Shown here piece after piece: positions 1 through 11,770 of a stretch of DNA of 64,000 nt. A program made the translations under genes and the position numbers. Position 1 is the stretch's first letter, and each line of letters opens with the position of its first letter. The notes beneath the pieces are model-generated. The model did not search any database. It was not told the DNA's origin and was given only the letters and a program-made list of their open reading frames with translations. Location: assembly GCF_024223415.1 (NCBI RefSeq), contig NZ_CP100502.1; one strand, written 5' to 3'. The DNA is from Escherichia coli. GTDB taxonomy: Bacteria; Pseudomonadota; Gammaproteobacteria; Enterobacterales; Enterobacteriaceae.

Positions 1-8
1 GCAAGGCG

Positions 9-314
9 TTGTCGGGTGAGCGAATGGCAGCCCGTGACAGAAATGCCGATCTGACCTGGATTCGCCAGCAACTGGTCGATGCCGCCTGGTTTGTCCGTGC
101 CACACTGGAAGCGCATGGGATGGGCGTCGGAAATGAGAGTCCCTCTGCTCCGCCGGAGACAATGCCGGACATACAGACACGGGAACTGGTTATGTTGATC
201 AAGCGACTGGCATCATCGCTGAAAGCGGTGAAACCCGACAGTAGCGTGGTGCGTGAAGCGCAGGACTGGCTGTGCGACAGAAAACTTGTGGATATCACAG
301 ATATTCTCCGGTGA
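9..314 (+). CDS. Hypothetical leading-region protein, probably the 3' part of a gene that starts upstream of the window (TTG at 9 unlikely to be the true start)
   Basis: ORF track 101 aa ending at 314; no recognisable motif; same strand as ardA. Confidence 0.3.
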   Translation: MSGERMAARDRNADLTWIRQQLVDAAWFVRATLEAHGMGVGNESPSAPPETMPDIQTRELVMLIKRLASSLKAVKPDSSVVREAQDWLCDRKLVDITDILR

Positions 315-776
315 ACCAGACATGTATATTTTACGCAGGGACACGCCGATCATGATCGTTTCATATCAGGGGTGGTCTGGAGGTCATGCGGCGTGTCCTC
401 TGCACTCGCCGGAATAAGGAAGTCGCCGGCGGCTCCGCTTTTACCCGGCCATGCGGGGCATGGCCTTGTGGGTTTTCAGCTCTGTGGCCTCAGCGTCGTG
501 TGCGGGCTGTGCCGTGCCTCCATCTTAGCCGGGCTGGCAGGGATGCAAGGGTACGCTTCGCCGCTGCGGTCACCCGGTCCCTCCTTCCCGTCTGCCGTGA
601 TTTTCCGGTCGTTCACCCGCTCAGATTTCGCGGTCTCACCCTCCAACTCCCGCCAGCCGTGTGCGTCAGGCTGCGGCTTCCCTTGCGCCCTGTGCATCCC
701 CGCCTTATCGCCCGGCTTTTATGGAGGCACGGCACCGCCCGGTGTCGCAGAACATGTGACTATGGAGGATTCGGGA

Positions 777-1277
777 ATGTCTGTTGTTGCACCTGCTGTA
801 TACGTTGGAACCTGGCACAAATACAACTGTGGAAGCATCGCTGGCCGCTGGTTTGACCTGGCCACGTTTGATGATGAACGCGACTTTTTCGCCGCCTGCC
901 GCTCTCTTCACCAGGATGAAGCCGATCCTGAACTGATGTTTCAGGATTATGAGGGATTCCCGGGGAATATGGCCTCAGAATGCCATATCAACTGGGCCTA
1001 TGTTGAAGGCTTCCGCCAGGCGCGGGATGAAGGCTGCGAAGAGGCTTATCGTCTCTGGGTGGATGATACCGGTGAGACGGATTTTGACACCTTCCGCGAT
1101 GCCTGGTGGGGCGAGGCTGACAGTGAGGAGGCTTTTGCGGTTGAGTTCGCCAGTGATACCGGCCTGCTGGCTGACGTGCCGGAGACGGTGGCGCTCTATT
1201 TTGACTATGAGGCGTATGCGCGGGATTTATTCCTGGACTCCTTCACCTTTATTGACGGTCATGTGTTCCGTCGGTGA
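777..1277 (+). CDS. ardA: ArdA antirestriction protein (DNA-mimic inhibitor of type I restriction-modification), 166 aa
   Basis: Internal Met of ORF 372..1277; strongly acidic protein beginning [28 protein letters not shown], matching ArdA of IncI1 plasmids as I recall it; the 372-776 extension is GC-rich leader. Confidence 0.85.
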
Positions 1278-1624
1278 TTTACTCCCCCGCTCCGGCGGGG
1301 GTATGGCCTGCCAGGCCGCCGGAAAACCCTGGCAGGCTTACGCCTGCCTGAAATGCAGGAGGGCCGCGCCTGCGGCGCTGCCCTTCCTGCCCGTCATGGT
1401 GTGAGGCATTTTTCTGTTATGTCGTTTCTGTTGTTCTGATTTCCGGAGGCGGGGACACCTTCGGCTCCCGGCTGCCTGGCGGCATCCGGTCGTCAGGCCC
1501 GACTCCGACAGGCAGCTGCTGGCGCACCCGCCAGTCTCCGCCGAACCCGCTGGCGCGGTTTCGGGCTGCCGCTACGGTCCGATGTCTGAAAAACCAGGCT
1601 TGCAGCGACCGTTCCGGTCGCGCC

Positions 1625-1960
1625 GCCCCTGTCGCGCCGGAAACGGCGCTCCCTGCACACCTTACGGTGTGTAAGGCAACTGCGCCTGATGGCGCAGTCA
1701 ACCCTTCCGCCGCCACCCCTGCGGCCTGTTTCCCGCTGTGGACTTTCCGGGGGCTGGAGTAACCACATCCCGTTTCAGCAGTCCAGGGGAAGATATACCG
1801 TCCACAAAATTTTTAGCCATAAACCCGGCAAAAAATTTTGCGTCCGCCCCCGGACAGCTGCCCCGTGACGTGGTGACGGACGCCCCATCGGAAAGGTCCA
1901 CTGCGGGGAGAAACCCCGAAGAAGTGGACGGCAGAAGGGGCTTTCGCCCCTCCGGGGAGC
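1625..1960 (+). promoter_or_regulatory. Frpo/ssi-like repeat copy A (candidate single-stranded-DNA promoter), ending just before the SD/ATG of the 2006 gene
   Basis: ~330-bp element repeated at 4520-4855 with long identical blocks (e.g. ggcgctccctgcacaccttacggtgtgtaaggc at 1644-1676); position in leading region upstream of a gene reading toward oriT. Confidence 0.5.
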
Positions 1961-2005
1961 AACCGGTCGGCCCGGCGACCTGATTCAGCAGAAGGAGATG
2001 TTTTC

Positions 2006-2440
2006 ATGACAGTCAGCAGCACGATTTCCGTTTTTTGCCGCGACGGGGTGTTCCGTACCGTTTACTGCCACCTGCACGGGGAGCCGACCTGGAACGGTCG
2101 CATCCTGCATACTCACTATGCCACCGGTCAGCAGGCCGAAGCCCTGGTTGAACACGGTGATATCCGTTGCCTCGGTCCCCGTTGTGACAAACCCGCCGGG
2201 CATACGCTTCAGAACCCGGTGGACGGTGTGACGGCTTATTACGGACGTGACAGTGGTTTCCGGATGGACAGTGAGGCGCGTGAGTACCGTTCTTTCAGGG
2301 AGGCTATTGCCACTGAAAGCACTGAAGAGGTGCGCTTCCATTATGTGTTCATCGACGGCTACTGGAAGGTGATGTACCGCACGCCGGAAGGCTGGAAGAT
2401 GAAAGCGCTCGCGCTGGCACTGCGTCGCTGTCCGAAATGA
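2006..2440 (+). CDS. Hypothetical leading-region protein, 144 aa
   Basis: ORF track; SD aggag upstream of ATG; immediately downstream of Frpo-like copy A; followed by hairpin 2447-2467. Confidence 0.55.
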   Translation: MTVSSTISVFCRDGVFRTVYCHLHGEPTWNGRILHTHYATGQQAEALVEHGDIRCLGPRCDKPAGHTLQNPVDGVTAYYGRDSGFRMDSEAREYRSFREAIATESTEEVRFHYVFIDGYWKVMYRTPEGWKMKALALALRRCPK

Positions 2441-2446
2441 AAAAAA

Positions 2447-2467
2447 GGCAGGGCGATAAACCCTGCC
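2447..2467 (+). terminator. Hairpin (ggcaggg-N7-ccctgcc) after the 2006..2440 gene
   Basis: 7-bp GC-rich stem followed by a T/C-rich tract. Confidence 0.4.
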
Positions 2468-2531
2468 TCTCTCCGCCGTTACTTCCCCGCCAGGAAGAGC
2501 GGCAGTCATCAACAACATAAGGAGTAATATT

Positions 2532-2798
2532 GTGAGACCATCAATTATCTTCGCAACCGCCGAGTATGTAAAGCGTCTGCGTGAAGAGTGCCTGCGGGAG
2601 AATAAACCCCTGCACCGCCATACCCGCTTCAGACGTCAGGAGCTGGCACAGGATGAGATTAACCCGGACGTCCTGGCGATGAGCGGCCATATCGCCAGAC
2701 GCTGCAGTGAGCAGAAGCGGGTGCGTATCCCCGCTATGAAAGTCAGCGAATGGGGCCACCTGCTCCGCGCGCTTGAAATTGAGCGGGTCTGCCACTGA
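2532..2798 (+). CDS. Hypothetical small basic protein, 88 aa (GTG start)
   Basis: ORF track; same strand and operon position as neighbours; no recognisable motif. Confidence 0.4.
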   Translation: MRPSIIFATAEYVKRLREECLRENKPLHRHTRFRRQELAQDEINPDVLAMSGHIARRCSEQKRVRIPAMKVSEWGHLLRALEIERVCH

Positions 2799-2862
2799 TT
2801 AACCCTTGCCGTCTGCCTGTGCAGGCGGCAGGATACGTTCAGACATCTCACCAGGAGGAACC

Positions 2863-3804
2863 GTGAGTAAGAAGAAAAACACCACAACGCCCACGCCGCA
2901 TGATGCCGCGTTCCGGTCGTTCCTGGCGAATCCCGACGTCGCCAGAGATTTTCTGGAACTGCATCTTCCTGCGGAGTACCGGCAGTTGTGCGACCTGTCC
3001 ACGCTGAAGCTGGAACCCGCCACCTTTGTTGAGCCGGACCTGCATCAGTACGCCAGCGATATCCTCTGGAGCGTGAAAACCACCGGGGGTGAAGATGGTT
3101 ATGTTTATACGCTCATCGAGCACCAGAGCACCGAAAATCTGTACATGCCTTTTCGCATGTTACGCTACAGTGTGGCGGCGATGCAGAGACATCTGGAGCA
3201 GCACAAAACGTTGCCACTGGTCATTCCGGTGCTGTTCTATCACGGTGAGCGCAGCCCGTACCCGTACAGCATGAACTGGCTGGACTGTTTTGAGAATCCG
3301 GCGCTTGCGGCTAAAATATACACAAAGCCGTTTCCGCTGGTTGATATCACTGTCGTTGATGACAATGAAATCATGAACCATCGCCGGATGGCCGCACTGA
3401 CGCTGCTGATGAAGCATATCCGTCAGCGGGATATGCTGATGTGTCTGGACAACCTGGTCAGAGCACTGCAGGACATCCAGGATGAAGAGCAGATTACAGT
3501 TCTTTTCAACTATCTGCTTAATGGCAGCGAACATGTAACGGTTGAATTTTTGCAGACGCTGGCGCAGCGACTGCCGCAGCACGAGGACAGCATTATGACA
3601 CTGGCAGAACGTCTTAAGCAGGAAGGTATCCAGCAAGGTATCCAGCAGGGTATCCAGCAGGGTATCCAGCAGGGAGTTCAGCAGGGGGCGCTTCAAAAAG
3701 CACGGGAAATCGCCCGGGAGCTCCGGAACGCGGGAATGCCGGCAGCACAAATCTGTCAGCTGACCGGACTTTCTGAAGCTGAACTGAAGAACATCACTCA
3801 CTGA
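2863..3804 (+). CDS. Rpn-family (YhgA-like, PD-(D/E)XK) recombination-promoting nuclease, 313 aa, GTG start
   Basis: N-terminus VSKKKNTTTPTPHDAAFRSFLANPDVARDFLELHLP is typical of E. coli RpnA-E/YhgA-like proteins; SD aggagg at 2853-2858; C-terminal tail with GIQQ repeats; ORF-table start at 2806 is a TTG extension. Confidence 0.8.
   Translation: MSKKKNTTTPTPHDAAFRSFLANPDVARDFLELHLPAEYRQLCDLSTLKLEPATFVEPDLHQYASDILWSVKTTGGEDGYVYTLIEHQSTENLYMPFRMLRYSVAAMQRHLEQHKTLPLVIPVLFYHGERSPYPYSMNWLDCFENPALAAKIYTKPFPLVDITVVDDNEIMNHRRMAALTLLMKHIRQRDMLMCLDNLVRALQDIQDEEQITVLFNYLLNGSEHVTVEFLQTLAQRLPQHEDSIMTLAERLKQEGIQQGIQQGIQQGIQQGVQQGALQKAREIARELRNAGMPAAQICQLTGLSEAELKNITH
3625..3684 (+). repeat. Five tandem 12-bp units (ggtatccagcaR) encoding (GIQQ)n inside the Rpn C-terminal tail
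   Basis: Direct reading: ggtatccagcaa ggtatccagcag ggtatccagcag ggtatccagcag ggagttcagcag. Confidence 0.9.
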
Positions 3805-3812
3805 TGAGAGCC

Positions 3813-3841
3813 AAAAGGCCCGGCAAAATGCCGGGCCTTTT
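3813..3841 (+). terminator. Rho-independent terminator after the Rpn gene
   Basis: Stem ggcccggc / gccgggcc with loop aaaat, followed by tttt. Confidence 0.75.
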
Positions 3842-3865
3842 GCCAGCAGGAGCAGAGAAAACAGT

Positions 3866-4036
3866 ATGACGATTGCAGAACGTCTTATACAGAAAGGTTT
3901 TGAAAAAGGTGCTCTTGAAGTGGCGCGGGAAATAGCCTGCCGGCTTCGGGATATGGGCTGGACGCCGGAACGGATTCAGGAGGCCACGGGACTTTCCGGT
4001 GAAGAACTGAAAAAACTGTTTCCTGATGAGCAGTAG
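3866..4036 (+). CDS. Small protein (56 aa) paralogous to the C-terminal tail of the upstream Rpn protein (RpnS-like)
   Basis: Not in ORF track (<60 aa). ATG 3866, TAG 4034-4036; MTIAERLIQKGFEKGALEVAREIACRLRDMGW... aligns with the Rpn tail MTLAERLKQEG...ALQKAREIARELRNAGM...; hairpin follows at 4037-4053. Confidence 0.5.
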   Translation: MTIAERLIQKGFEKGALEVAREIACRLRDMGWTPERIQEATGLSGEELKKLFPDEQ

Positions 4037-4066
4037 CCTGGCATTCTGCCAGGCTGTGAACCACGC

Positions 4067-4318
4067 TCACACATCCTCTGCCGTTTCCCCCAGTTCATTT
4101 TCCAGACGCCTGATGATATCTGCCTTGCGCATCCCCTGCATGTGAGGCAGCAGGTCACGGACTGAAAGTGCCTGGGTGGTCCTCCAGACGGTGACATCCA
4201 CCTGTTCCGCATTTTCCCAGGCGTGCCATGTTCTCTGTGTCACGCCAAATTCTCTGGCCGCTTTTTCGCGTGACCAGAGCATGCTTTTTCGCCAGATTCG
4301 CAGTTCCCAGCCGGTCAT
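4067..4318 (-). CDS. Small helix-turn-helix (XRE/Cro-like) DNA-binding protein, 83 aa
   Basis: ORF track; HTH-like segment WSREKAAREFGVTQRTWHAWE; operator-like palindromes immediately upstream of its start. Confidence 0.55.
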   Translation of the reverse strand: MTGWELRIWRKSMLWSREKAAREFGVTQRTWHAWENAEQVDVTVWRTTQALSVRDLLPHMQGMRKADIIRRLENELGETAEDV

Positions 4319-4331
4319 AAAACACCTTTGA

Positions 4332-4420
4332 AAAAGTGAAAAAACTTCACTTTATTTTATCACCATAACCACCAAATCAGCGCGAAAAATAAGTGTGAAA
4401 AAGTGAAGGAATTTCACTTT
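4332..4420. promoter_or_regulatory. Promoter/operator region with two inverted repeats AAGTGAA-N-TTCACTT
   Basis: aaagtgaaaaaacttcacttt (4332-4352) and aagtgaaggaatttcacttt (4401-4420) directly upstream of the HTH gene. Confidence 0.45.
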
Positions 4421-4519
4421 TTTTGATTGTAGGTGTCGTGCTGTTTTCTCTGTTTTCACCTGTGCGGGAGTGGTGTGCCAGTGACCACCACATGCCATTG
4501 TTGCGCCGTCGTTTTTCTT

Positions 4520-4855
4520 CAGTCGCGCCGGATGCGGCGCTCCCTGCACACCTTACGGTGTGTAAGGCCACTGCGCCTGATGGCGCAGCTGTCTCTGCCT
4601 GTCTGCCGCCGCACTGCGGCCTGTTCTCCGCAGATGGACTTTCCGGGGGTACATACACGACCACATCCCGTTTCAGTCGTCCAGGGGAGAGATGTACCAG
4701 CCACAAAACTTTTTGCCGCAGGCGTCAAAAACTTTTGCGTCTGCCCCCGGACAACTGCCCCGTGACGTGGTGAGCGTCCCCCGTCGGAAAGGTCCACTGC
4801 GGGGAAATCCCCGAAGACCCGGACGGCAGAAGGAGCTTCGCTCCTCCGGGAAATG
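4520..4855 (+). promoter_or_regulatory. Frpo/ssi-like repeat copy B (candidate single-stranded-DNA promoter), ending just before the SD/ATG of the 4898 gene
   Basis: Paralog of 1625-1960; shares blocks ggcgctccctgcacaccttacggtgtgtaaggc and tggactttccggggg...ccccgtgacgtggtga...ggaaaggtccactgcgggga. Confidence 0.5.
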
Positions 4856-4897
4856 ACCTGGCTGACCCGGCAGTCGTGACGATGAGGAGACAATGTG

Positions 4898-5746
4898 ATG
4901 AATCAGACTTTACCCACTGCTGACCTGAATACTGCCGGCACGACAGATGTTATTCCGTCTGTGGCCATCGACCGCATCATCGCGCAGCGTAACGAAGGTA
5001 TTGCACTGTTCATGCAGGCGATGGAATGCCTGGCGACAGCGCGCAGGATTCTGCTTGATGCGTCAGGTGATATTTTTCTTTACGGTTTTGAAGACTGCGT
5101 GACCGACTCCGTTCGGTGCATGGATAAACCGGAAGAAGCGAAAAGGAATATCACCCGTCTTGCCGACCGGAAAATCTGGGACCGCCTGATGACGGATACG
5201 GGGATGTACACCTTCATGAGTTCATGTCAGCGTGATGAGTGGAACAGCCAGCTGATGAGCGACACCTGTCCTGAAATCACCCTGGACAATGTACTGGCAA
5301 CTTTTCGCCATCTGAATGCCAGTAAGATGCAGACATTTGAACAGGGACTGATTGATGTCTACCGGAAATTGTCATGGGATTACAGAACCAATAATCCCTG
5401 CCGTCTGGGCAAGAGAATCATTATTGAAAACCTGCTGTACCGCTGGAGTAACGGGCGTGTTACGCTGGACTGCAGCGGACGGGAGGCACTGGATGACCTG
5501 GTACGTCCGTTTTATCTGCTGGAGGGGCGCAACGTTCCTGACTTCCGGAGCAGCATCGGGGCGCAGTACGGTGAATTTATCGGGAACGGCGACAATGTCG
5601 GTAAGCTGTTAGAAGGGGAATATTTTACGGTGCGTGGCTACCAGAAAGGGACCGTACACATTGTCTTTAAGCGTCCTGACCTTGTTGAAAAACTGAATGA
5701 TATTATTGCACGGCATTATCCTGGTTCATTGCCGCCACGAGTCTGA
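4898..5746 (+). CDS. Hypothetical leading-region protein, 282 aa
   Basis: ORF track (4895 is GTG; ATG at 4898 has SD gaggag 8 nt upstream); terminator follows. Confidence 0.6.
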   Translation: MNQTLPTADLNTAGTTDVIPSVAIDRIIAQRNEGIALFMQAMECLATARRILLDASGDIFLYGFEDCVTDSVRCMDKPEEAKRNITRLADRKIWDRLMTDTGMYTFMSSCQRDEWNSQLMSDTCPEITLDNVLATFRHLNASKMQTFEQGLIDVYRKLSWDYRTNNPCRLGKRIIIENLLYRWSNGRVTLDCSGREALDDLVRPFYLLEGRNVPDFRSSIGAQYGEFIGNGDNVGKLLEGEYFTVRGYQKGTVHIVFKRPDLVEKLNDIIARHYPGSLPPRV

Positions 5747-5756
5747 TTAAACAGAA

Positions 5757-5787
5757 AAGCCCTGGTATTTATGCCGGGGCTTTTTTT
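5757..5787 (+). terminator. Rho-independent terminator
   Basis: Stem gccctgg / ccggggc followed by ttttttt. Confidence 0.75.
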
Positions 5788-5830
5788 CTGTAATCATCAT
5801 AATATCAGAACATGATGTGACATTGTCACA

Positions 5831-6172
5831 TCAATTGTTGTTCATATCGATGCCATCTTTCCTGGCTGAATCTGTCTTTTTAGATGCTGTTTTAGAGGAA
5901 GAACGGCGGGATGGCTTTTTCGATTCTGCTTCCCGAATAATGTCACGAAGTGCCTTCTCTCCTACTTCATACCCTGCATTTTTGAGCGTATCACGAACAT
6001 CTGCCAGTGTATAACCCTTTGTCCTTACCAGAACAATAATGTCATCACGAATGGCATCAAGAAAATCACGCAATGTTTTCCGTTGAGCGGTGAGATCTGG
6101 CAATTCCGATAAAGCAGCTTTTGCCAGCTGGATGTCATCATCTGAGTAAAATTTTTTAGAAGCCATTGGCAC
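5831..6172 (-). CDS. Hypothetical protein with Lys/Ser-rich basic C-terminal tail, 113 aa, adjacent to oriT and divergent from nikA
   Basis: ORF track; basic tail suggests nucleic-acid binding; function not recognisable. Confidence 0.45.
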   Translation of the reverse strand: MPMASKKFYSDDDIQLAKAALSELPDLTAQRKTLRDFLDAIRDDIIVLVRTKGYTLADVRDTLKNAGYEVGEKALRDIIREAESKKPSRRSSSKTASKKTDSARKDGIDMNNN

Positions 6173-6199
6173 TTTCTCTCCGTTTCATGTTGAAGTCTG

Positions 6200-6360
6200 A
6201 TTTTATCATCAAAAACTGACTCCTGGCAGGGCTGCGCCCTGCCTCTGCCGTCTGCATAAGACTATGATGCACAAAAATAACAGGCTATAATGGCCTGAAA
6301 AACGGGACAGGATGTGCAATTGTAATACCGTCACACGCGACGCTATTACAATTGCCATCT
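6200..6360. other. oriT region (origin of transfer); contains a perfect 12-bp inverted repeat gcaattgtaata (6316-6327) / tattacaattgc (6344-6355)
   Basis: Non-coding stretch immediately upstream of nikA-nikB; inverted repeat read directly; nick site not determinable by eye. Confidence 0.6.
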
Positions 6361-6399
6361 GGTCAGGGCTTCGCCCCGACACCCCGTAAGGAGCCTGAA

Positions 6400-6732
6400 G
6401 TGAGTGATAGTGCGGTAAGAAAGAAAAGTGAGGTACGGCAAAAGACAGTTGTCAGGACACTCAGATTCTCTCCTGTTGAGGATGAAACCATCAGGAAAAA
6501 AGCTGAAGATTCCGGACTTACTGTATCTGCTTACATCCGAAATGCAGCACTGAATAAGCGAATTAACTCCCGTACAGATGATGCTTTTCTGAAGGAGTTA
6601 ATGAGACTGGGAAGGATGCAGAAGCATCTGTTTGTTCAGGGAAAAAGAACCGGTGACAAGGAATACGCAGAAGTGCTTGTTGCCATAACCGAACTTACAA
6701 ATACATTGCGTAAACAGTTAATGGAAGGTTGA
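6400..6732 (+). CDS. nikA: NikA, relaxosome accessory protein (ribbon-helix-helix), 110 aa, GTG start
   Basis: SD aaggag at 6388-6393; 110 aa matches R64 NikA as I recall; directly precedes the relaxase gene. Confidence 0.8.
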   Translation: MSDSAVRKKSEVRQKTVVRTLRFSPVEDETIRKKAEDSGLTVSAYIRNAALNKRINSRTDDAFLKELMRLGRMQKHLFVQGKRTGDKEYAEVLVAITELTNTLRKQLMEG

Positions 6733-6742
6733 GGATTCTCCG

Positions 6743-9442
6743 GTGAATGCAGTCATTCCGAAAAAGAGAAGGGACGGCAAGTCTTCGTTCGAAGACCTGG
6801 TATCCTACGTCTCTGTCCGGGATGACATGACCGATGAGGAACTGGATTTATCTTCTTCTTCGCAGGCTGAACAACCGCACCGAAGCCGTTTCAGTCGCCT
6901 TGTTGATTATGCGACACGTCTTCGAAATGAGTCATTCGTGGCGCTGGTTGATGTCATGAAGGACGGCTGCGAATGGGTCAACTTTTATGGTGTCACCTGC
7001 TTTCATAACTGTACTTCTCTTGAAACTGCCGCTGCAGATATGGAGTACATTGCCCGGCAGGCACACTATGCAAAAGATGACACTGATCCTGTTTTTCACT
7101 ACATCCTTTCCTGGCAGTCACATGAAAGCCCGCGTCCGGAACAGATTTATGACAGTGTACGTCATACGCTGAAATCACTCGGCCTTGCCGACCATCAGTA
7201 TGTCTCTGCCGTGCATACTGATACAGATAATCTGCACGTCCATGTGGCTGTTAACCGGGTACACCCTGAAACGGGTTATCTGAACCGGTTATCCTGGAGT
7301 CAGGAAAAACTCAGTCGTGCCTGCCGTGAGCTTGAACTGAAGCATGGTTTTGCTCCGGATAACGGTTGCTGGGTCCATGCACCGGGAAATCGTATCGTTC
7401 GCAAAACCGCCGTTGAACGTGATCGCCAGAACGCGTGGACACGCGGGAAAAAACAAACTTTTCGCGAGTATGTCGCGCAGACAGCGGTCGCTGGTTTACG
7501 CAGTGAACCTGTAAATGACTGGTTATCCCTGCATCGTCGTCTTGCGGAAGATGGTCTGTACCTGTCTCAGATGGACGGAAAATTTCTGGTGATGGATGGC
7601 TGGGATCGCAACAGGGAAGGTGTACAGCTTGACTCGTTTGGTCCCTCCTGGTGTGCAGAAAAACTCATGAAAAAAATGGGTGACTACACGCCAGTACCAA
7701 AAGACATTTTCAGCCAGGTGGAAGCACCAGGACGCTATAATCCGGACTTCATTGCCGCTGATGTTCGCCCGGAAAAAATCGCTGAAACAGAAAGTCTGCA
7801 GCAGTATGCCTGTCGTCATCTTGGAGAACGTCTGCCGGAAATGGCACGGGAAGGACGGCTGGAAAACTGCCAGGCTATTCACCGCACACTGGCTGAAGCG
7901 GGATTATGGATGCGTGTTCAGCATGGTCACCTGGTTATCTGTGACGGTTATGATCATAACCAGACTCCCGTTCGTGCTGACAGCGTATGGTCGCTGCTGA
8001 CGCTCGACAATGTGAATCAACTCGATGGTGGCTGGCAGCCTGTACCAACAGATATTTTCCGCCAGGTTACGCCAACAGAACGCTTCCGTGGTCGTCGTAT
8101 GGAGAGCTGTCCTGCGACCGATAAAGAATGGCACCGTATGCGTACAGGCACGGGGCCGCAGGGGGCTATCAAACGCGAACTGTTTTCTGACAAAGAAAGT
8201 CTGTGGGGATACAGCATCAGCCATTGTAGCCCTCAGATTGAAGAAATGATCACACAGGGTGAGTTTACCTGGCAGCGTTGTCATGAGCTGTTTGCACAAC
8301 AGGGACTGATGCTACAGAAACAACATCACGGGCTTGTTGTCGTTGATGCCTTTAATCATGAGCAAACGCCGGTGAAGGCCAGCAGCATTCATCCTGATCT
8401 GACACTGGGGCGTGCAGAGCCACAGGCCGGACCTTTTGTGAGTGCCCCAGCAGATTTGTTTGACAGGGTGCAACCTGAAAGTCGCTATAACCCGGAGCTG
8501 GCTGTCAGTGACAGGTACGGGGTCAGCAGTAAACGTGACCCAATGCTGCGCCGGCAGCGACGTGAAGCCAGAGCTGAGGCCCGTGCTGACCTGCGTGCCC
8601 GCTATCTGGCATGGCGTGAACAATGGCGTAAACCAGATCTGCGTTATGGGGAACGTTGTCGGGAAATTCATCAGGCATGCCGTCTGCGGAAGTCACACAT
8701 TCGTGCGCAGTACGATGATCCGGCATTACGTAAGCTGCATTATCACATTGCAGAAGTTCAGCGAATGCAGGCATTGATCAGGCTGAAAGAAGACATCAGG
8801 GATGAGCGACAGAAACTTATTGCTGATGGGAAATGGTATCCACCCTCTTACCGTCAGTGGGTCGAAATTCAGGCTGCTCAGGGAGACAGGGCTGCTGTAT
8901 CGCAGCTGAGAGGCTGGGATTATCGCGATCGCCGTAAAGACAGGTCACGCACAACGACGACAGACCGCTGTGTCGTGCTTTGTGAACCGGGCGGAACGCC
9001 GGTATACGGTAATACCGGTGATCTCGAGGCCCGTCTGCAGAAGAACGGGAGTGTTCGTTTCCGTGACCGTCGGACGGGAGAGTTTGTCTGTACGGATTAT
9101 GGTGACAGGGTTGTTTTCCGTAATCACCATGACCGCAATGCGCTGGCAGATAAACTGGATTTGATTGCACCGGTATTATTCGGGCGTGATCCACGCATGG
9201 GTTTTGAACCAGAAGGAAACGACAAACAATTTAACCAGGTCTTTGCTGAAATGGTTGCCTGGCATAATGTGACAGGCCGTACCGGTCACGAAGACTACAG
9301 GATTACGCGACCGGACGTGGATCATCACCGTGAAGGAAGTGAACGCTACTACCGCGATTATATCGCGGCGAACAGCAACAATGACGCATCACTGCCTCCG
9401 CCGGAGCAGGATAAACGCTGGGAACCGCCTTCTCCAGGTTAA
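6743..9442 (+). CDS. nikB: NikB relaxase (MobP-type), 899 aa
   Basis: ORF track; N-terminal HxH motif region (HTDTDNLHVHVAVNRVHPETG); length equals R64 NikB (899 aa) as I recall. Confidence 0.85.
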   Translation: MNAVIPKKRRDGKSSFEDLVSYVSVRDDMTDEELDLSSSSQAEQPHRSRFSRLVDYATRLRNESFVALVDVMKDGCEWVNFYGVTCFHNCTSLETAAADMEYIARQAHYAKDDTDPVFHYILSWQSHESPRPEQIYDSVRHTLKSLGLADHQYVSAVHTDTDNLHVHVAVNRVHPETGYLNRLSWSQEKLSRACRELELKHGFAPDNGCWVHAPGNRIVRKTAVERDRQNAWTRGKKQTFREYVAQTAVAGLRSEPVNDWLSLHRRLAEDGLYLSQMDGKFLVMDGWDRNREGVQLDSFGPSWCAEKLMKKMGDYTPVPKDIFSQVEAPGRYNPDFIAADVRPEKIAETESLQQYACRHLGERLPEMAREGRLENCQAIHRTLAEAGLWMRVQHGHLVICDGYDHNQTPVRADSVWSLLTLDNVNQLDGGWQPVPTDIFRQVTPTERFRGRRMESCPATDKEWHRMRTGTGPQGAIKRELFSDKESLWGYSISHCSPQIEEMITQGEFTWQRCHELFAQQGLMLQKQHHGLVVVDAFNHEQTPVKASSIHPDLTLGRAEPQAGPFVSAPADLFDRVQPESRYNPELAVSDRYGVSSKRDPMLRRQRREARAEARADLRARYLAWREQWRKPDLRYGERCREIHQACRLRKSHIRAQYDDPALRKLHYHIAEVQRMQALIRLKEDIRDERQKLIADGKWYPPSYRQWVEIQAAQGDRAAVSQLRGWDYRDRRKDRSRTTTTDRCVVLCEPGGTPVYGNTGDLEARLQKNGSVRFRDRRTGEFVCTDYGDRVVFRNHHDRNALADKLDLIAPVLFGRDPRMGFEPEGNDKQFNQVFAEMVAWHNVTGRTGHEDYRITRPDVDHHREGSERYYRDYIAANSNNDASLPPPEQDKRWEPPSPG

Positions 9443-9448
9443 AAAAAA

Positions 9449-9473
9449 GGCCGCGCCAGAATCCGGCGCGGCC
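9449..9473. terminator. Bidirectional terminator hairpin between convergent nikB and trbC
   Basis: 9-bp stem ggccgcgcc / ggcgcggcc flanked by an A-run upstream (T-run on the minus strand). Confidence 0.7.
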
Positions 9474-9478
9474 ACTGT

Positions 9479-11770
9479 TCAGTACATTCCGTCCCAGTCC
9501 GGACGGTTGGTTTTTTTATGATGAAACCCGTTTACAGGACGCCCTGTCGGGTGGTTATTGTCCTGTGGAAGCGTTAACAGGTTTATACCTGCTCTTTCTG
9601 CTCTCACTGATATCTGATTTTCCTCTTTTGTTTCAGGTAGTTCTGGTCTGTTCAGCGTGATATAGCGAATTCGTCGCTCTTCCCGTGTGGTCGTTTTAAG
9701 CGTATTCACCGCTGTTTCCCACAAGGCACTTTCACGTGCGTTGATATCTGTGTCGTACTCTTCCAGCATTGCCATAGCCGCCTGACGTCCTGCAATGCGT
9801 TGCTGGAATGTATCCACGATCGTGTGCGGCTCTGTGCGAATTTTTCGTCTTTTTCTGGAGGGTTTTGCAGTCAGGACGCCAATGATGGCACTGACATTTT
9901 CCGGTGACGGTATTCGACGTTGAGTAGTACGGGGAACAAGACGGCGGAGACGGTCCAGGCGTGGCGCATCCACGCTGATATACCTGTTTATAACAACGGG
10001 ATCGCTGCTGCAGCTTTTCTCATCGTCAGGGATGAAGAATGATGCTGATGGTACGGTTTCTCCCCGGAAAATAGAAAAGAACTCGCCAGGATGAAGTTCA
10101 ATCAACTCCTGAACATTTATCTTGCTTTCCATCAGGATGCTGATTTGTGGGCTGTCAATCCATGATTCACCAAATATGCCGTCCTGACGCTGCAGGTTGT
10201 TCATTCTCGCCCTGGCTTCTTCACCGGCGGCGCTTTTCAGCGTTCTGGCCGTACTACCCTCGCTGACAATCCTGCCGGCAAATTTTGTCCCCGTGTTCTG
10301 CATCAGTGTTGCAGTATTCGTGGCTGTTGTCTGTCCTTCTATACGTTCCTGGTCCTGTGCCATCAAAATCAGAGCAAAATCCAGTGAACGCACCTGAGTG
10401 GCTTCCACAGCAATACGGTCCGTATAGTATGCCCCCACTTCATCAAGGAAACACAGATAAGGGAAACGCCCCTTATATTTTTTGACTTCCAGTGCATCGG
10501 AATCAGTTCCTTCGAGGCGGTAGCCCAAATCACGGGCGAGAATCATACTTTTCTGGGTGATAAACATTCGTCCAAGAGCAGACGTTGTATGCGCTGATGT
10601 ATCCAGAGCGGGGATCATTACCATCAGAATCCTGTCGCTGTGAATGCTGTCACGGATATCGATATCACCGGAATCTTCAGCAAAAATATCCCCGAATGCT
10701 TCCGTGAATGTGCTGAAAGTTTCAGAAAACTGCCCGGAGAGATAAGCATGTTGTTTTCTGGGTTCTTCCGTCCAGGCTGATGGTGTCCTGACCAGCGACA
10801 GGTCGAAACCGGGAACGTCCTGAAGGTAGTTACGTAACGGTGCGATAGCTTCTTCCGGCCACTGATCATCGAGGCCACGACAGTAAAGTTTGGCCATCCC
10901 TTCGAGAGTCATATGTTCACGGAGCATCTGCAGCGACATTGTTTTGCCTTCGCGCACACACCAGAATTTAGTACCAAATACTAGTGCCTTATTCATGGCA
11001 ATGGCCCGGGACTGCCACTCGCCCCCCTGGACGTTCTGGGGCAGCATTGACTGCATTGTCTCCGCTGTGAATGCCTCAGTGCTGTAACAGAAGGGATTCC
11101 AGGTATTTGACTGAGGACGCGTTTTTTCACCACTCAGAATGATTTCACTGCGGGATTTTCCTCCGTTCATGAAGTTAATGACTTCCACATCGTCTTCACG
11201 TCCAAAGCGTCTGGCCAGATACCAGATCGTTCTTGCCGTATCATTCTGTGCCTTGCCATCGACAAGGGTGAATCCTCTTGCCCAGCAAAGTGGGTTAATC
11301 GCCCAGGCAAAGATGGTTTCCGTTTTACCGCCACCGGTGGTGGCGAAAAACATTATATGGCGGGTCAGATCGTCCATACTCAGCCATAACTCCCTGCCAA
11401 TATCCCTGACGCGTTGATAACCAACATAGAATATGCCGCTGGCCGGTGATTCCAGAATGACCTCATACTGGAACAGGGTTGGCCAGAAGCTGAAAAGACT
11501 TCTTTTAATCATTCTGTCCTGTGACGGGTCAGCACATTCCAGCGTCATGGGCATACGAAGAGGGCAGCGCCATCGCTGCAGACTAAATACCAGCATTGTT
11601 ATCAGTGTGAACAACAGACATGCCGGTAATGCAAGTGGCCAGATAAAACTGGCCACAAGACTTGCCACCAGGCAAAAGCCATAGATATTGAGACTCTGGA
11701 GTGCATTCCAGACAGGATTTCCCCAGGCTGTACGGTGTAAAAGCTCGGGGTTAACGCGATGTTCACTCAT
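9479..11770 (-). CDS. trbC: TrbC, DotL/IcmO-like type IV coupling ATPase, 763 aa
   Basis: Walker A FFATTGGGKTE; N-terminal transmembrane segments; length and position match R64 trbC. Confidence 0.8.
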   Translation of the reverse strand: MSEHRVNPELLHRTAWGNPVWNALQSLNIYGFCLVASLVASFIWPLALPACLLFTLITMLVFSLQRWRCPLRMPMTLECADPSQDRMIKRSLFSFWPTLFQYEVILESPASGIFYVGYQRVRDIGRELWLSMDDLTRHIMFFATTGGGKTETIFAWAINPLCWARGFTLVDGKAQNDTARTIWYLARRFGREDDVEVINFMNGGKSRSEIILSGEKTRPQSNTWNPFCYSTEAFTAETMQSMLPQNVQGGEWQSRAIAMNKALVFGTKFWCVREGKTMSLQMLREHMTLEGMAKLYCRGLDDQWPEEAIAPLRNYLQDVPGFDLSLVRTPSAWTEEPRKQHAYLSGQFSETFSTFTEAFGDIFAEDSGDIDIRDSIHSDRILMVMIPALDTSAHTTSALGRMFITQKSMILARDLGYRLEGTDSDALEVKKYKGRFPYLCFLDEVGAYYTDRIAVEATQVRSLDFALILMAQDQERIEGQTTATNTATLMQNTGTKFAGRIVSEGSTARTLKSAAGEEARARMNNLQRQDGIFGESWIDSPQISILMESKINVQELIELHPGEFFSIFRGETVPSASFFIPDDEKSCSSDPVVINRYISVDAPRLDRLRRLVPRTTQRRIPSPENVSAIIGVLTAKPSRKRRKIRTEPHTIVDTFQQRIAGRQAAMAMLEEYDTDINARESALWETAVNTLKTTTREERRIRYITLNRPELPETKEENQISVRAERAGINLLTLPQDNNHPTGRPVNGFHHKKTNRPDWDGMY

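Follow-up and report, generated by a model that had tools for sequence, protein, structure and literature searches.

The closest described counterparts of the locus examined here, an rpn module at positions 2863-4036 of a 64,000-nt stretch of Escherichia coli DNA (contig NZ_CP100502.1; hereafter, the window), are the Rpn proteins of E. coli. Zhong et al. (2023, PMC10400941) reported that RpnL is a toxic DNA endonuclease and that RpnS blocks it by binding as an L2S2 complex. RpnS is a three-helix bundle whose helix 1 carries 4-aa repeats in strain-dependent number, and in the case of RpnC an S protein with one repeat too many fails to inhibit L (PMC10400941). The same study reported internal promoters in E. 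coli rpn genes, eliminated the M244 start of RpnA by mutation, and found that the plasmid-encoded RpnP2LS, from ECOR13, protects against T-even phages. It also described separate downstream genes, termed RpnSs, on both chromosomes and plasmids, including ypaA (RpnESs) after rpnE and rpnCSs after rpnC. These genes have their own 4-aa repeat variation and can be lost by deletion or by fusion to the N-domain, and RpnCSs and RpnESs cluster with the tails of their own upstream rpn genes, implying local duplication; YpaA protein is synthesized in E. coli, and the authors speculated that RpnL promotes tail fusions (PMC10400941). The YpaA protein of K-12 exceeds the RpnE tail by a single 4-aa unit, KLEG. 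By the published repeat-matching rule, the stand-alone copies, here as in K-12 ypaA, are usually mismatched. RefSeq lists K-12 ypaA as a pseudogene and RpnE as 'inactive' (rpnE-ypaA, L047 16905-18002).

Rpn-type genes also figure in published tables of plasmid leading regions. Family 18 of Samuel et al. (2024, PMC11541004), 'recombination-promoting nuclease RpnB', has 2,601 members at a median open reading frame (ORF) position of 4 from the origin of transfer (oriT), and family 20, with mixed rpnE, hypothetical and FliH annotations, has 2,372 members at a median position of 3. Both are on the transferred strand (T-strand; strand 1) and are among the most prevalent leading-region-enriched families of the supplementary table (PMC11541004). 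Family 20 most probably corresponds to the small ORF described below. Neither PMC11541004 nor PMC12672017 takes up, in its main text, what Rpn might do in leading regions. Taken together, the architecture of Zhong et al. and the tables of Samuel et al. mean that both the layout of this locus and its leading-region location were already published. A preliminary description of this DNA, made from its letters alone, had implied that a small-protein function duplicated as its own gene was novel, which the published record does not support.

We consider it likely that the locus comprises an RpnL/RpnS gene-within-a-gene toxin-antitoxin nuclease together with a free-standing RpnSs paralog, which would act as an auxiliary RpnS-like subunit. 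Below we present the evidence for the three proteins, the distribution and recombination of their tail modules, and the alternatives for the role of the free-standing copy.

The Rpn protein, its nested tail ORF and the free-standing tail gene

Positions 2700-4350 are 100% identical to ColIb-P9 of Shigella sonnei (NC_002122.1) and to several E. coli IncI1 plasmids, which by sequence identifies the locus as the rpn (ygdB) module of an IncI1 plasmid of the ColIb-P9 type. The ORF after ygdB is unnamed in the classical nomenclature. The module has the following features:

2863-3804, + strand: rpnL (ygdB), 313 aa, full-length Rpn / YhgA-like PD-(D/E)XK nuclease, presumed toxin
3290-3317, + strand: candidate sigma-70 promoter inside rpnL, TTGAGA-16-TAAAAT, 10/12 consensus matches
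3595-3804, + strand: rpnS, nested in-frame ORF of 69 aa (MTLAERL...), presumed intragenic antitoxin, tail module type A
3625-3684, + strand: tail repeat, five 12-bp units (GIQQ x4 + GVQQ), helix 1 of the tail
3812-3842, no strand assigned: GC-rich hairpin between rpnL and the small ORF, resembling a terminator on either strand; its 14-bp stem is preceded by an A4 tract and followed by a T4 tail
3866-4036, + strand: small ORF, RpnSs-type, tail module type C, 56 aa, with a single repeat unit GFEK at 3896-3907

The rpnL gene starts with GTG at 2863, preceded by an AGGAGG Shine-Dalgarno sequence (2850-2855), and stops with TGA at 3802-3804. Its product had been described as an Rpn-family protein of 313 aa, and this assignment was confirmed by matches to Pfam PF04754 Transposase_31 (YhgA-like; residues 11-209, E=4.3e-78) and to NCBIfam TIGR01784 'Rpn family recombination-promoting nuclease/putative transposase' (178 bits, cut-off 52.1), although not to PDDEXK_7, the model that the preliminary description had named. 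The N-domain is 48-58% identical to those of K-12 RpnA-E and keeps the SDILW (SDxLW) and IEHQS motifs. D66, E86 and Q88 align with D63, E82 and Q84 of RpnA and, from the PD-(D/E)XK motif, are presumed to be the catalytic residues. RpnL is annotated as 'Rpn family recombination-promoting nuclease' in about 2,000 plasmids. Matches of the RpnL tail to FliH were far under the cut-off and were caused by the repeat helix. PADLOC, which has no Rpn model, gave a single match, between the tail and the 'putative invertase' C3a178, and this was set aside.

The nested ORF begins at ATG 3595, which is in frame with rpnL ((3595-2863)/3 = 244) and has GAGGA 8 nt upstream. The corresponding residue, M245 of RpnL, aligns exactly with RpnA M244, an experimentally validated internal start. 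The in-frame ATG noted in the preliminary description, which would give a 69-aa tail protein, is thereby confirmed. Residues 273-309 of RpnL match the RpnA-S crystal chain 7TH0 by sequence (E=0.0055), and a helix-turn-helix (HTH) domain with the three-helix RpnA-S-type fold, PF27070 HTH_Rpn_C, is precomputed on homologous RpnL proteins. The 4-aa repeats begin at residue 11 of the 69-aa product. The five tandem 12-bp units reported earlier were recovered by Tandem Repeats Finder as 5.2 copies of period 12 at 3625-3686 (92% matches), and their exact make-up is four GIQQ units and one GVQQ. The candidate promoter at 3290-3317 could drive a short rpnS transcript. It is the sole promoter-like site on the + strand in 1200-5000, but shuffled sequences yield as many, so that it is statistically indistinguishable from chance; its sequence is conserved in 14 divergent loci, where the flanking coding DNA is conserved equally.

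Several comparisons relate the 56-aa ORF to the RpnL tail, as had been claimed. By BLASTP it matches RpnL residues 276-311 (18/36 identities, 50%; E=1e-7), and 54 nt, beginning nine bases before ATG 3866, are 74% identical to 3586-3639 (repeat family D3). The ORF starts with the MT(I/L)AERL motif, as the RpnL tail does, and the homology to the tail runs from its first residue. It also matches the C-terminal end (last 49 positions) of TIGR01784 (E=2.9e-7). A Pfam scan with a library lacking PF27070 HTH_Rpn_C found nothing significant in the 56-aa ORF; the precomputed PF27070 assignment is flagged as faint on the small ORF and bears no such mark on RpnL tails or on the free-standing type B genes described below. 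The AF2 model is a helical bundle of four helices with a mean predicted local distance difference test score (pLDDT) of 81.6. Its best Foldseek match in the PDB is RpnA-S 7TH0, at E=0.58, a probability of 0.89 and template modeling (TM) scores of 0.56/0.66, a weak match of the kind expected for a protein of 56 residues; compared by sequence, the two gave E=0.042. High-scoring matches to IcmE/DotG and to designed repeat proteins in the PDB reflected repeated-helix composition and no homology to the module.

Other evidence suggests that the small ORF is coding. Its relatives fall into 329 protein clusters, with lengths of 56, 60, 64, 68, 72 and 76 aa. Across plasmids the repeat GF(D/K/E)x is present in 0-6 units, giving proteins of 52-76 aa, and every variant preserves the frame (12-nt classes). 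The ORF was intact in all of the approximately 60 examined loci that carry it, and tblastn covered at least 80% of the 42-aa type C core in 2,026 of 2,027 plasmid records. Among eleven distinct alleles of the core, the ratio of nonsynonymous to synonymous polymorphism (pN/pS) was 0.24 and the variable sites numbered 4/2/9 by codon position, a pattern indicating that the type C protein is under purifying selection as a selectively maintained, diverged copy of the tail. ATG 3866 and its spacer are conserved among loci, and an alternative upstream ATG falls in the hairpin. The length of the T run shifts that upstream ATG in and out of frame, which explains the annotated versions of 69-93 aa; these were rejected as the true start, and ATG 3866 is the conserved one. 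A newer RefSeq label for the small ORF is 'RpnC/YadD family protein', and many records have only 'hypothetical protein'.

The preliminary description placed the small ORF 60 nt past a terminator. It actually begins 61 nt past the rpnL stop codon and about 22 nt past the hairpin at 3812-3842. The hairpin has a centroid energy of -26.1 kcal/mol, and the minimum free energy of the 71-nt segment is -28.6 kcal/mol (z=-5.5 on the + strand and -4.8 on the - strand). A simple terminator scan missed it because of the short T run. In 12 representative loci, the same GC-rich hairpin with a run of T4-T7, and the same spacer, precede every free-standing tail module. An Rfam search of window 1-10000 gave a single match, rli61 at 3806-3868 with 29.7 bits, below the gathering threshold of 50; it corresponds to the hairpin itself and was rejected.

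Tail modules in related plasmids and the possible role of type C

Sequence related to 2700-4350 is present in 2,036 PLSDB plasmids, nearly all of them conjugative (MOBP/MPF_I) and from Escherichia, Salmonella or Shigella. The preliminary description had called for a survey of plasmids for the same pair and for repeat-number variation, and both were found. The 42-aa core of type C occurs at no less than 90% identity in 1,992 PLSDB plasmids and the RpnL N-domain at no less than 80% identity in 1,998, so that the pair recurs in about 2,000 plasmids; the RpnL tails of sister plasmids have 3-7 GIQQ-type units or 0-5 GRQE/GRME units, a hypervariable number, beside the 0-6 units of type C. When 5,426 complete E. 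coli genomes were searched, 1,340 contained DNA of the type C gene; the matches fell at 1,734 places on plasmids and 18 on chromosomes. About a quarter of complete E. coli genomes thus carry the small gene, almost always on plasmids. The plasmids belong to the IncI/K/Z group, which spreads extended-spectrum beta-lactamase (ESBL) genes.

All tail-like modules were parsed in 46 loci obtained by exact-protein look-ups of small-ORF variants and in 12 more from plasmid and E. coli genome collections. The locus of the IncI complex is built from three types of tail module, A, B and C, each running from an MT(I/L)AERL start to the end of an HTH core, and all are alike in layout (start motif, HTH core, stop, hairpin, spacer). 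Type A, (GIQQ)n ... AQICQLTGLSEAELKNITH, is the RpnL tail of the window and was also found as a mosaic variant, A'; type B is (GRQE/GRME)n ... TPEQIKQATGLSEAELKKIIH, and type C is (GFDE/GFKE)n ... GWTPERIQEATGLSGEELKKLFPDEQ. The RpnL tail is of type A in some plasmids and of type B in others. Elsewhere type B is a free gene between an A-tailed RpnL and type C, with the same hairpin before each (for example, L005 2781-2942 and L033/L034 2769-2942). Type C is free-standing and last in all sampled loci, save one B/C fusion in NZ_CP148324.1 (L053 1787-2671). There the RpnL tail is B up to 'MTPE' and C thereafter, a deletion having joined the tail to the small gene downstream of it through a crossover inside 'MTPE(Q/R)I'; IS100 also truncates this RpnL gene at its 5' end. 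A' tails sit on either type of the linker that precedes the tail, giving linker/tail mosaics, and some loci keep type C beside a truncated RpnL. In NC_021811.1 (L063 2602-4183), RpnL is intact, has a B5 tail and is directly followed by an IS66-family element; the 1.5 kb examined beyond that element contained no type C gene. Judged from these arrangements, the locus evolves through repeat slippage and recombination between tail modules.

The N-domain alleles of RpnL split as well (86% versus 99%). The difference is concentrated in the linker before the tail, LFNYLLNGSEHVTVEFLQTLAQRL versus LIHYIVNAGDSVSPEFMRALAERL (window ~3440-3594, RpnL residues ~195-244), and the catalytic part is nearly invariant among alleles. 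Linker type and tail type recombine independently (loci L055 and L056). The allele class of the window is the minority, with 372 plasmid records versus 1,626.

Whose partner type C might be was examined through its identities. Type C is 55% identical (28/51) to the adjacent A tail and 67% identical (34/51) to the B tail of sister plasmids, and it reaches at most 22/47 (no more than 47%) with any K-12 Rpn tail (RpnA-E) or with YpaA. The idea that it is a decoy for the Rpn proteins of the host found no close match in that comparison and is not favored by sequence. In a scan of 1.8 billion representative proteins, no C-type tail above 50% identity was found on a full-length Rpn: all relatives above approximately 60% were short, and full-length Rpn matches did not exceed 40%. 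Type C does not cluster with its own upstream rpn tail but forms a separate conserved lineage, which probably goes back to an older duplication in this family of plasmids. The IS66-bearing plasmid with an intact RpnL and no type C fits RpnS, rather than type C, as the primary antitoxin. From the combined survey results, we infer that the nested RpnS, which matches RpnL by construction, is the primary antitoxin. The same results suggest that type C is a conserved extra component and that it does not relate to RpnL as a simple cognate of matching length would.

On the reading that we favor, RpnL would be a toxic DNA endonuclease, as inferred from Zhong et al. (2023). RpnS made from ATG 3595 would bind RpnL via the tail and hold it inactive until the system is triggered, for instance by an infecting phage; the repeats would tune which S pairs with which L. 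The genomic context suggests that the rpn genes would be transcribed early in the transconjugant. Type C, finally, would be an extra RpnS-like subunit that buffers or modulates the plasmid's own RpnL/RpnS complex and is not the primary antitoxin, and this is the least certain step.

A number of observations weigh against this reading. Type C and the RpnL tail have equal numbers of repeats in just 2 of 21 distinct configurations, and the two numbers show no coupling (Spearman rho -0.09, p=0.70). In the window there are five repeats in the RpnL tail and one in type C, and the repeat sequence differs too, which conflicts with the repeat-matching rule published for RpnC. Simple cognate self-immunity is hard to reconcile with uncoupled repeat numbers and that rule. 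Furthermore, the type C core remains 90-100% identical while RpnL varies both in its tail (A or B) and in its linker (two types), which argues against a co-evolving cognate interface. A promoter scan found no promoter-like site before the small ORF and a strong hairpin lies about 22 nt upstream, so its transcription would rely on read-through or on an unrecognized promoter. Likewise, the upstream ssi element (see below) is only presumed to drive the rpn operon.

We ranked three alternatives for type C. From most to least probable, they are a factor that acts in trans against Rpn or in competition, a reservoir for recombination, and a relic. Under the first, which we regard as rather unlikely, type C would be an early-made anti-defense or competition factor, an orphan antitoxin or decoy that binds non-self Rpn proteins of the recipient chromosome or of related plasmids and not its own RpnL. 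In favor of this alternative, the number and type of the type C repeats vary independently of the RpnL tail, the core is constant whatever tail RpnL has, and the hypervariable repeat would suit an arms race. The setting is also suggestive, as the gene lies in the leading region in T-strand sense, adjoining ardA and psiB and downstream of an ssi/Frpo-like element, and orphan antitoxins have been reported to be enriched in leading regions and proposed to act in this way. However, its nearest relatives are the B tails of sister plasmids and not the K-12 tails or YpaA, and the absence of a full-length Rpn with a C-type tail above 50% identity from the 1.8 billion representatives leaves it without an obvious known target. 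Early expression would be restricted by the hairpin just before the gene, and common descent would account equally well for the linkage to RpnL seen in about 2,000 plasmids. We give only a small probability to the reading that type C is no antitoxin for its own nuclease but a hypervariable factor that, early and in trans, neutralizes or re-programs Rpn nucleases encoded by the recipient or by competing plasmids of the IncI type. If it does so, type C, supplied from the leading region, would be the first anti-Rpn anti-defense protein. Relatedly, type C might titrate RpnS, freeing RpnL in the new host.

It is improbable that the downstream tail genes serve mainly as a recombination reservoir, in which exchange swaps or fuses tails and diversifies RpnL/RpnS specificity while the small-ORF protein is secondary. 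The purifying selection on the type C protein would be unneeded for a pure DNA reservoir, type C is almost never an RpnL tail, and the modules are direct repeats, so that exchange deletes material and does not cycle it. Nevertheless, the uniform layout of the modules, the fact that type B can be either a tail of RpnL or a gene by itself, the linker/tail mosaics, and the B/C crossover that gave a fused tail speak for a reservoir, and fusions are also mentioned by Zhong et al. (PMC10400941). Least probable of all, and very much so, is that the small ORF is a non-functional relic of tail duplication. RefSeq treats K-12 ypaA as a pseudogene, and the small ORF has a terminator-like hairpin upstream, no promoter that we found and often a 'hypothetical protein' label, all of which would fit a relic. 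Against this stand its intactness in about 60 loci, the coverage of its core in all but one of the 2,027 records, the low pN/pS, the in-frame nature of all length variants, the conserved start codon and spacer, and the fact that YpaA is made in E. coli.

Expression context and neighboring genes

The following features surround the rpn genes:

1560-1990, - strand: ssi/Frpo-like element 1 (class-1 type repeat), directly upstream of ygcA-ygdA-rpn
2006-2440, + strand: ygcA, 144 aa, first gene past the ssi element; name from LC567051.1
2532-2798, + strand: ygdA, 88 aa, directly upstream of rpn; name from LC567051.1
4035-4055, no strand assigned: 9-bp hairpin shared by the small ORF and ygeA where their 3' ends converge; folding energy -18.9 kcal/mol on + and -22.1 kcal/mol on -, both with z near -3
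4067-4318, - strand: ygeA, 83-aa HTH protein, convergent with the small ORF; from the ORF list and plasmid annotation
4450-4895, - strand: ssi/Frpo-like element 2, upstream of ygfB (DUF4942), bounding the rpn block on the oriT side

The gene order, with the classical names of LC567051.1, is psiB-psiA-ygaA-ardA-ygcA-ygdA-ygdB(transposase_31)-unnamed small ORF-ygeA-ygfB-yggA-nikA-nikB. The pair of ygdB and the small ORF thus lies approximately 2.3-3.5 kb from nikA/oriT, in the leading region and in the orientation of ardA and psiB (T-strand sense), and the location given in the preliminary description was correct.

The two ssi/Frpo-like elements, of about 450 bp each, share repeats of 67 nt (96%) and 60 nt (87%), with the second copy at 4522-4782. 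Element 1 folds as single-stranded DNA (ssDNA) of the - strand, the template of the + genes, with -128.6 kcal/mol (z=-9.5), and element 2, which contains repeat families D1 and D2, with -117.3 kcal/mol (z=-8.2). A 29-mer core of ssi-like elements occurs exactly twice in the window, where 0 occurrences are expected. The elements ssi1-3 of ColIb-P9 have been described as Frpo-like (PMC12672017), and the third of them presumably lies beyond the left end of the window. That study also reports that pESBL, an IncI1 plasmid, has six operons preceded by ssDNA hairpins whose expression rises by as much as ~500-fold in the first 15 min after transfer; its main text does not name the six (PMC12672017). 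Given their T-strand sense, their closeness to nikA and the ssi/Frpo-type hairpin upstream, the rpn genes are probably expressed soon after entry into the transconjugant, by zygotic transcription behind element 1. The interest of the arrangement is that a presumably toxic nuclease module is predicted to be placed behind a single-strand promoter. If the Rpn module is switched on at entry, it could affect plasmid establishment, the phage resistance of transconjugants and competition between related plasmids.

Neither ygcA nor ygdA gave a match in the NCBIfam or PADLOC searches. In Samuel et al. (2024, PMC11541004), 'YgdA' is one of the names annotated for family 1, the most prevalent uncharacterized leading-region family. 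In plasmids of the IncK2/Z type, an additional ORF of 129 aa lies between ygdA and rpnL and overlaps the rpnL start (L017 1725-2114; L025/L026/L027 1675-2064; L058 476-865); one record labels this region 'cobalamin biosynthesis protein CbiX'. On the other side, ygeA is annotated as 'helix-turn-helix transcriptional regulator' in plasmid records and is present in most of the surveyed loci, being absent or truncated in a few; it may belong to the rpn module or may simply be a neighbor. Just upstream of its start are two AT-rich direct repeats (4319-4360 and 4386-4427; 79% identical, 67 nt apart), each with a GTGAA-N5-TTCAC palindrome, and these could be operator sites for YgeA.

Comparison with described systems

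In common with the RpnL/RpnS pairs described in E. coli (RpnA-E and RpnP2), the plasmid locus has a YhgA-like PD-(D/E)XK N-domain, an HTH tail, a homologous internal methionine with a Shine-Dalgarno sequence, and variable 4-aa repeats. It differs in its repeat unit, which is GIQQ in the window plasmid. Rpn genes in the leading region also share features with the anti-defense islands described there (PMC11541004; PMC12672017), namely the T-strand orientation, a position few genes from oriT, an ssi-type hairpin upstream, and ardA, psiB and ssb as neighbors. However, Rpn is a toxin and phage-defense nuclease and no known anti-defense protein.

The small ORF can be compared with the RpnSs genes. 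Both there and here a small gene on the same strand lies immediately downstream of the large one, starts with MTIAERL, and has its own repeat variation, with a repeat number unlike that of the upstream tail. Yet the K-12 copy is ~85% (44/52) identical to its own upstream tail and begins 12 nt after it, whereas the plasmid copy is 55% (28/51) identical and is set off from rpnL by a strong hairpin, and some plasmids have two free copies, B and then C. Moreover, type C of the plasmids is a separate conserved lineage while the RpnL tail alternates between A and B. To the published picture, the present survey adds the make-up of the locus from A, B and C modules, the conserved and independently hypervariable lineage of type C, and its mismatch with the repeat-matching rule.

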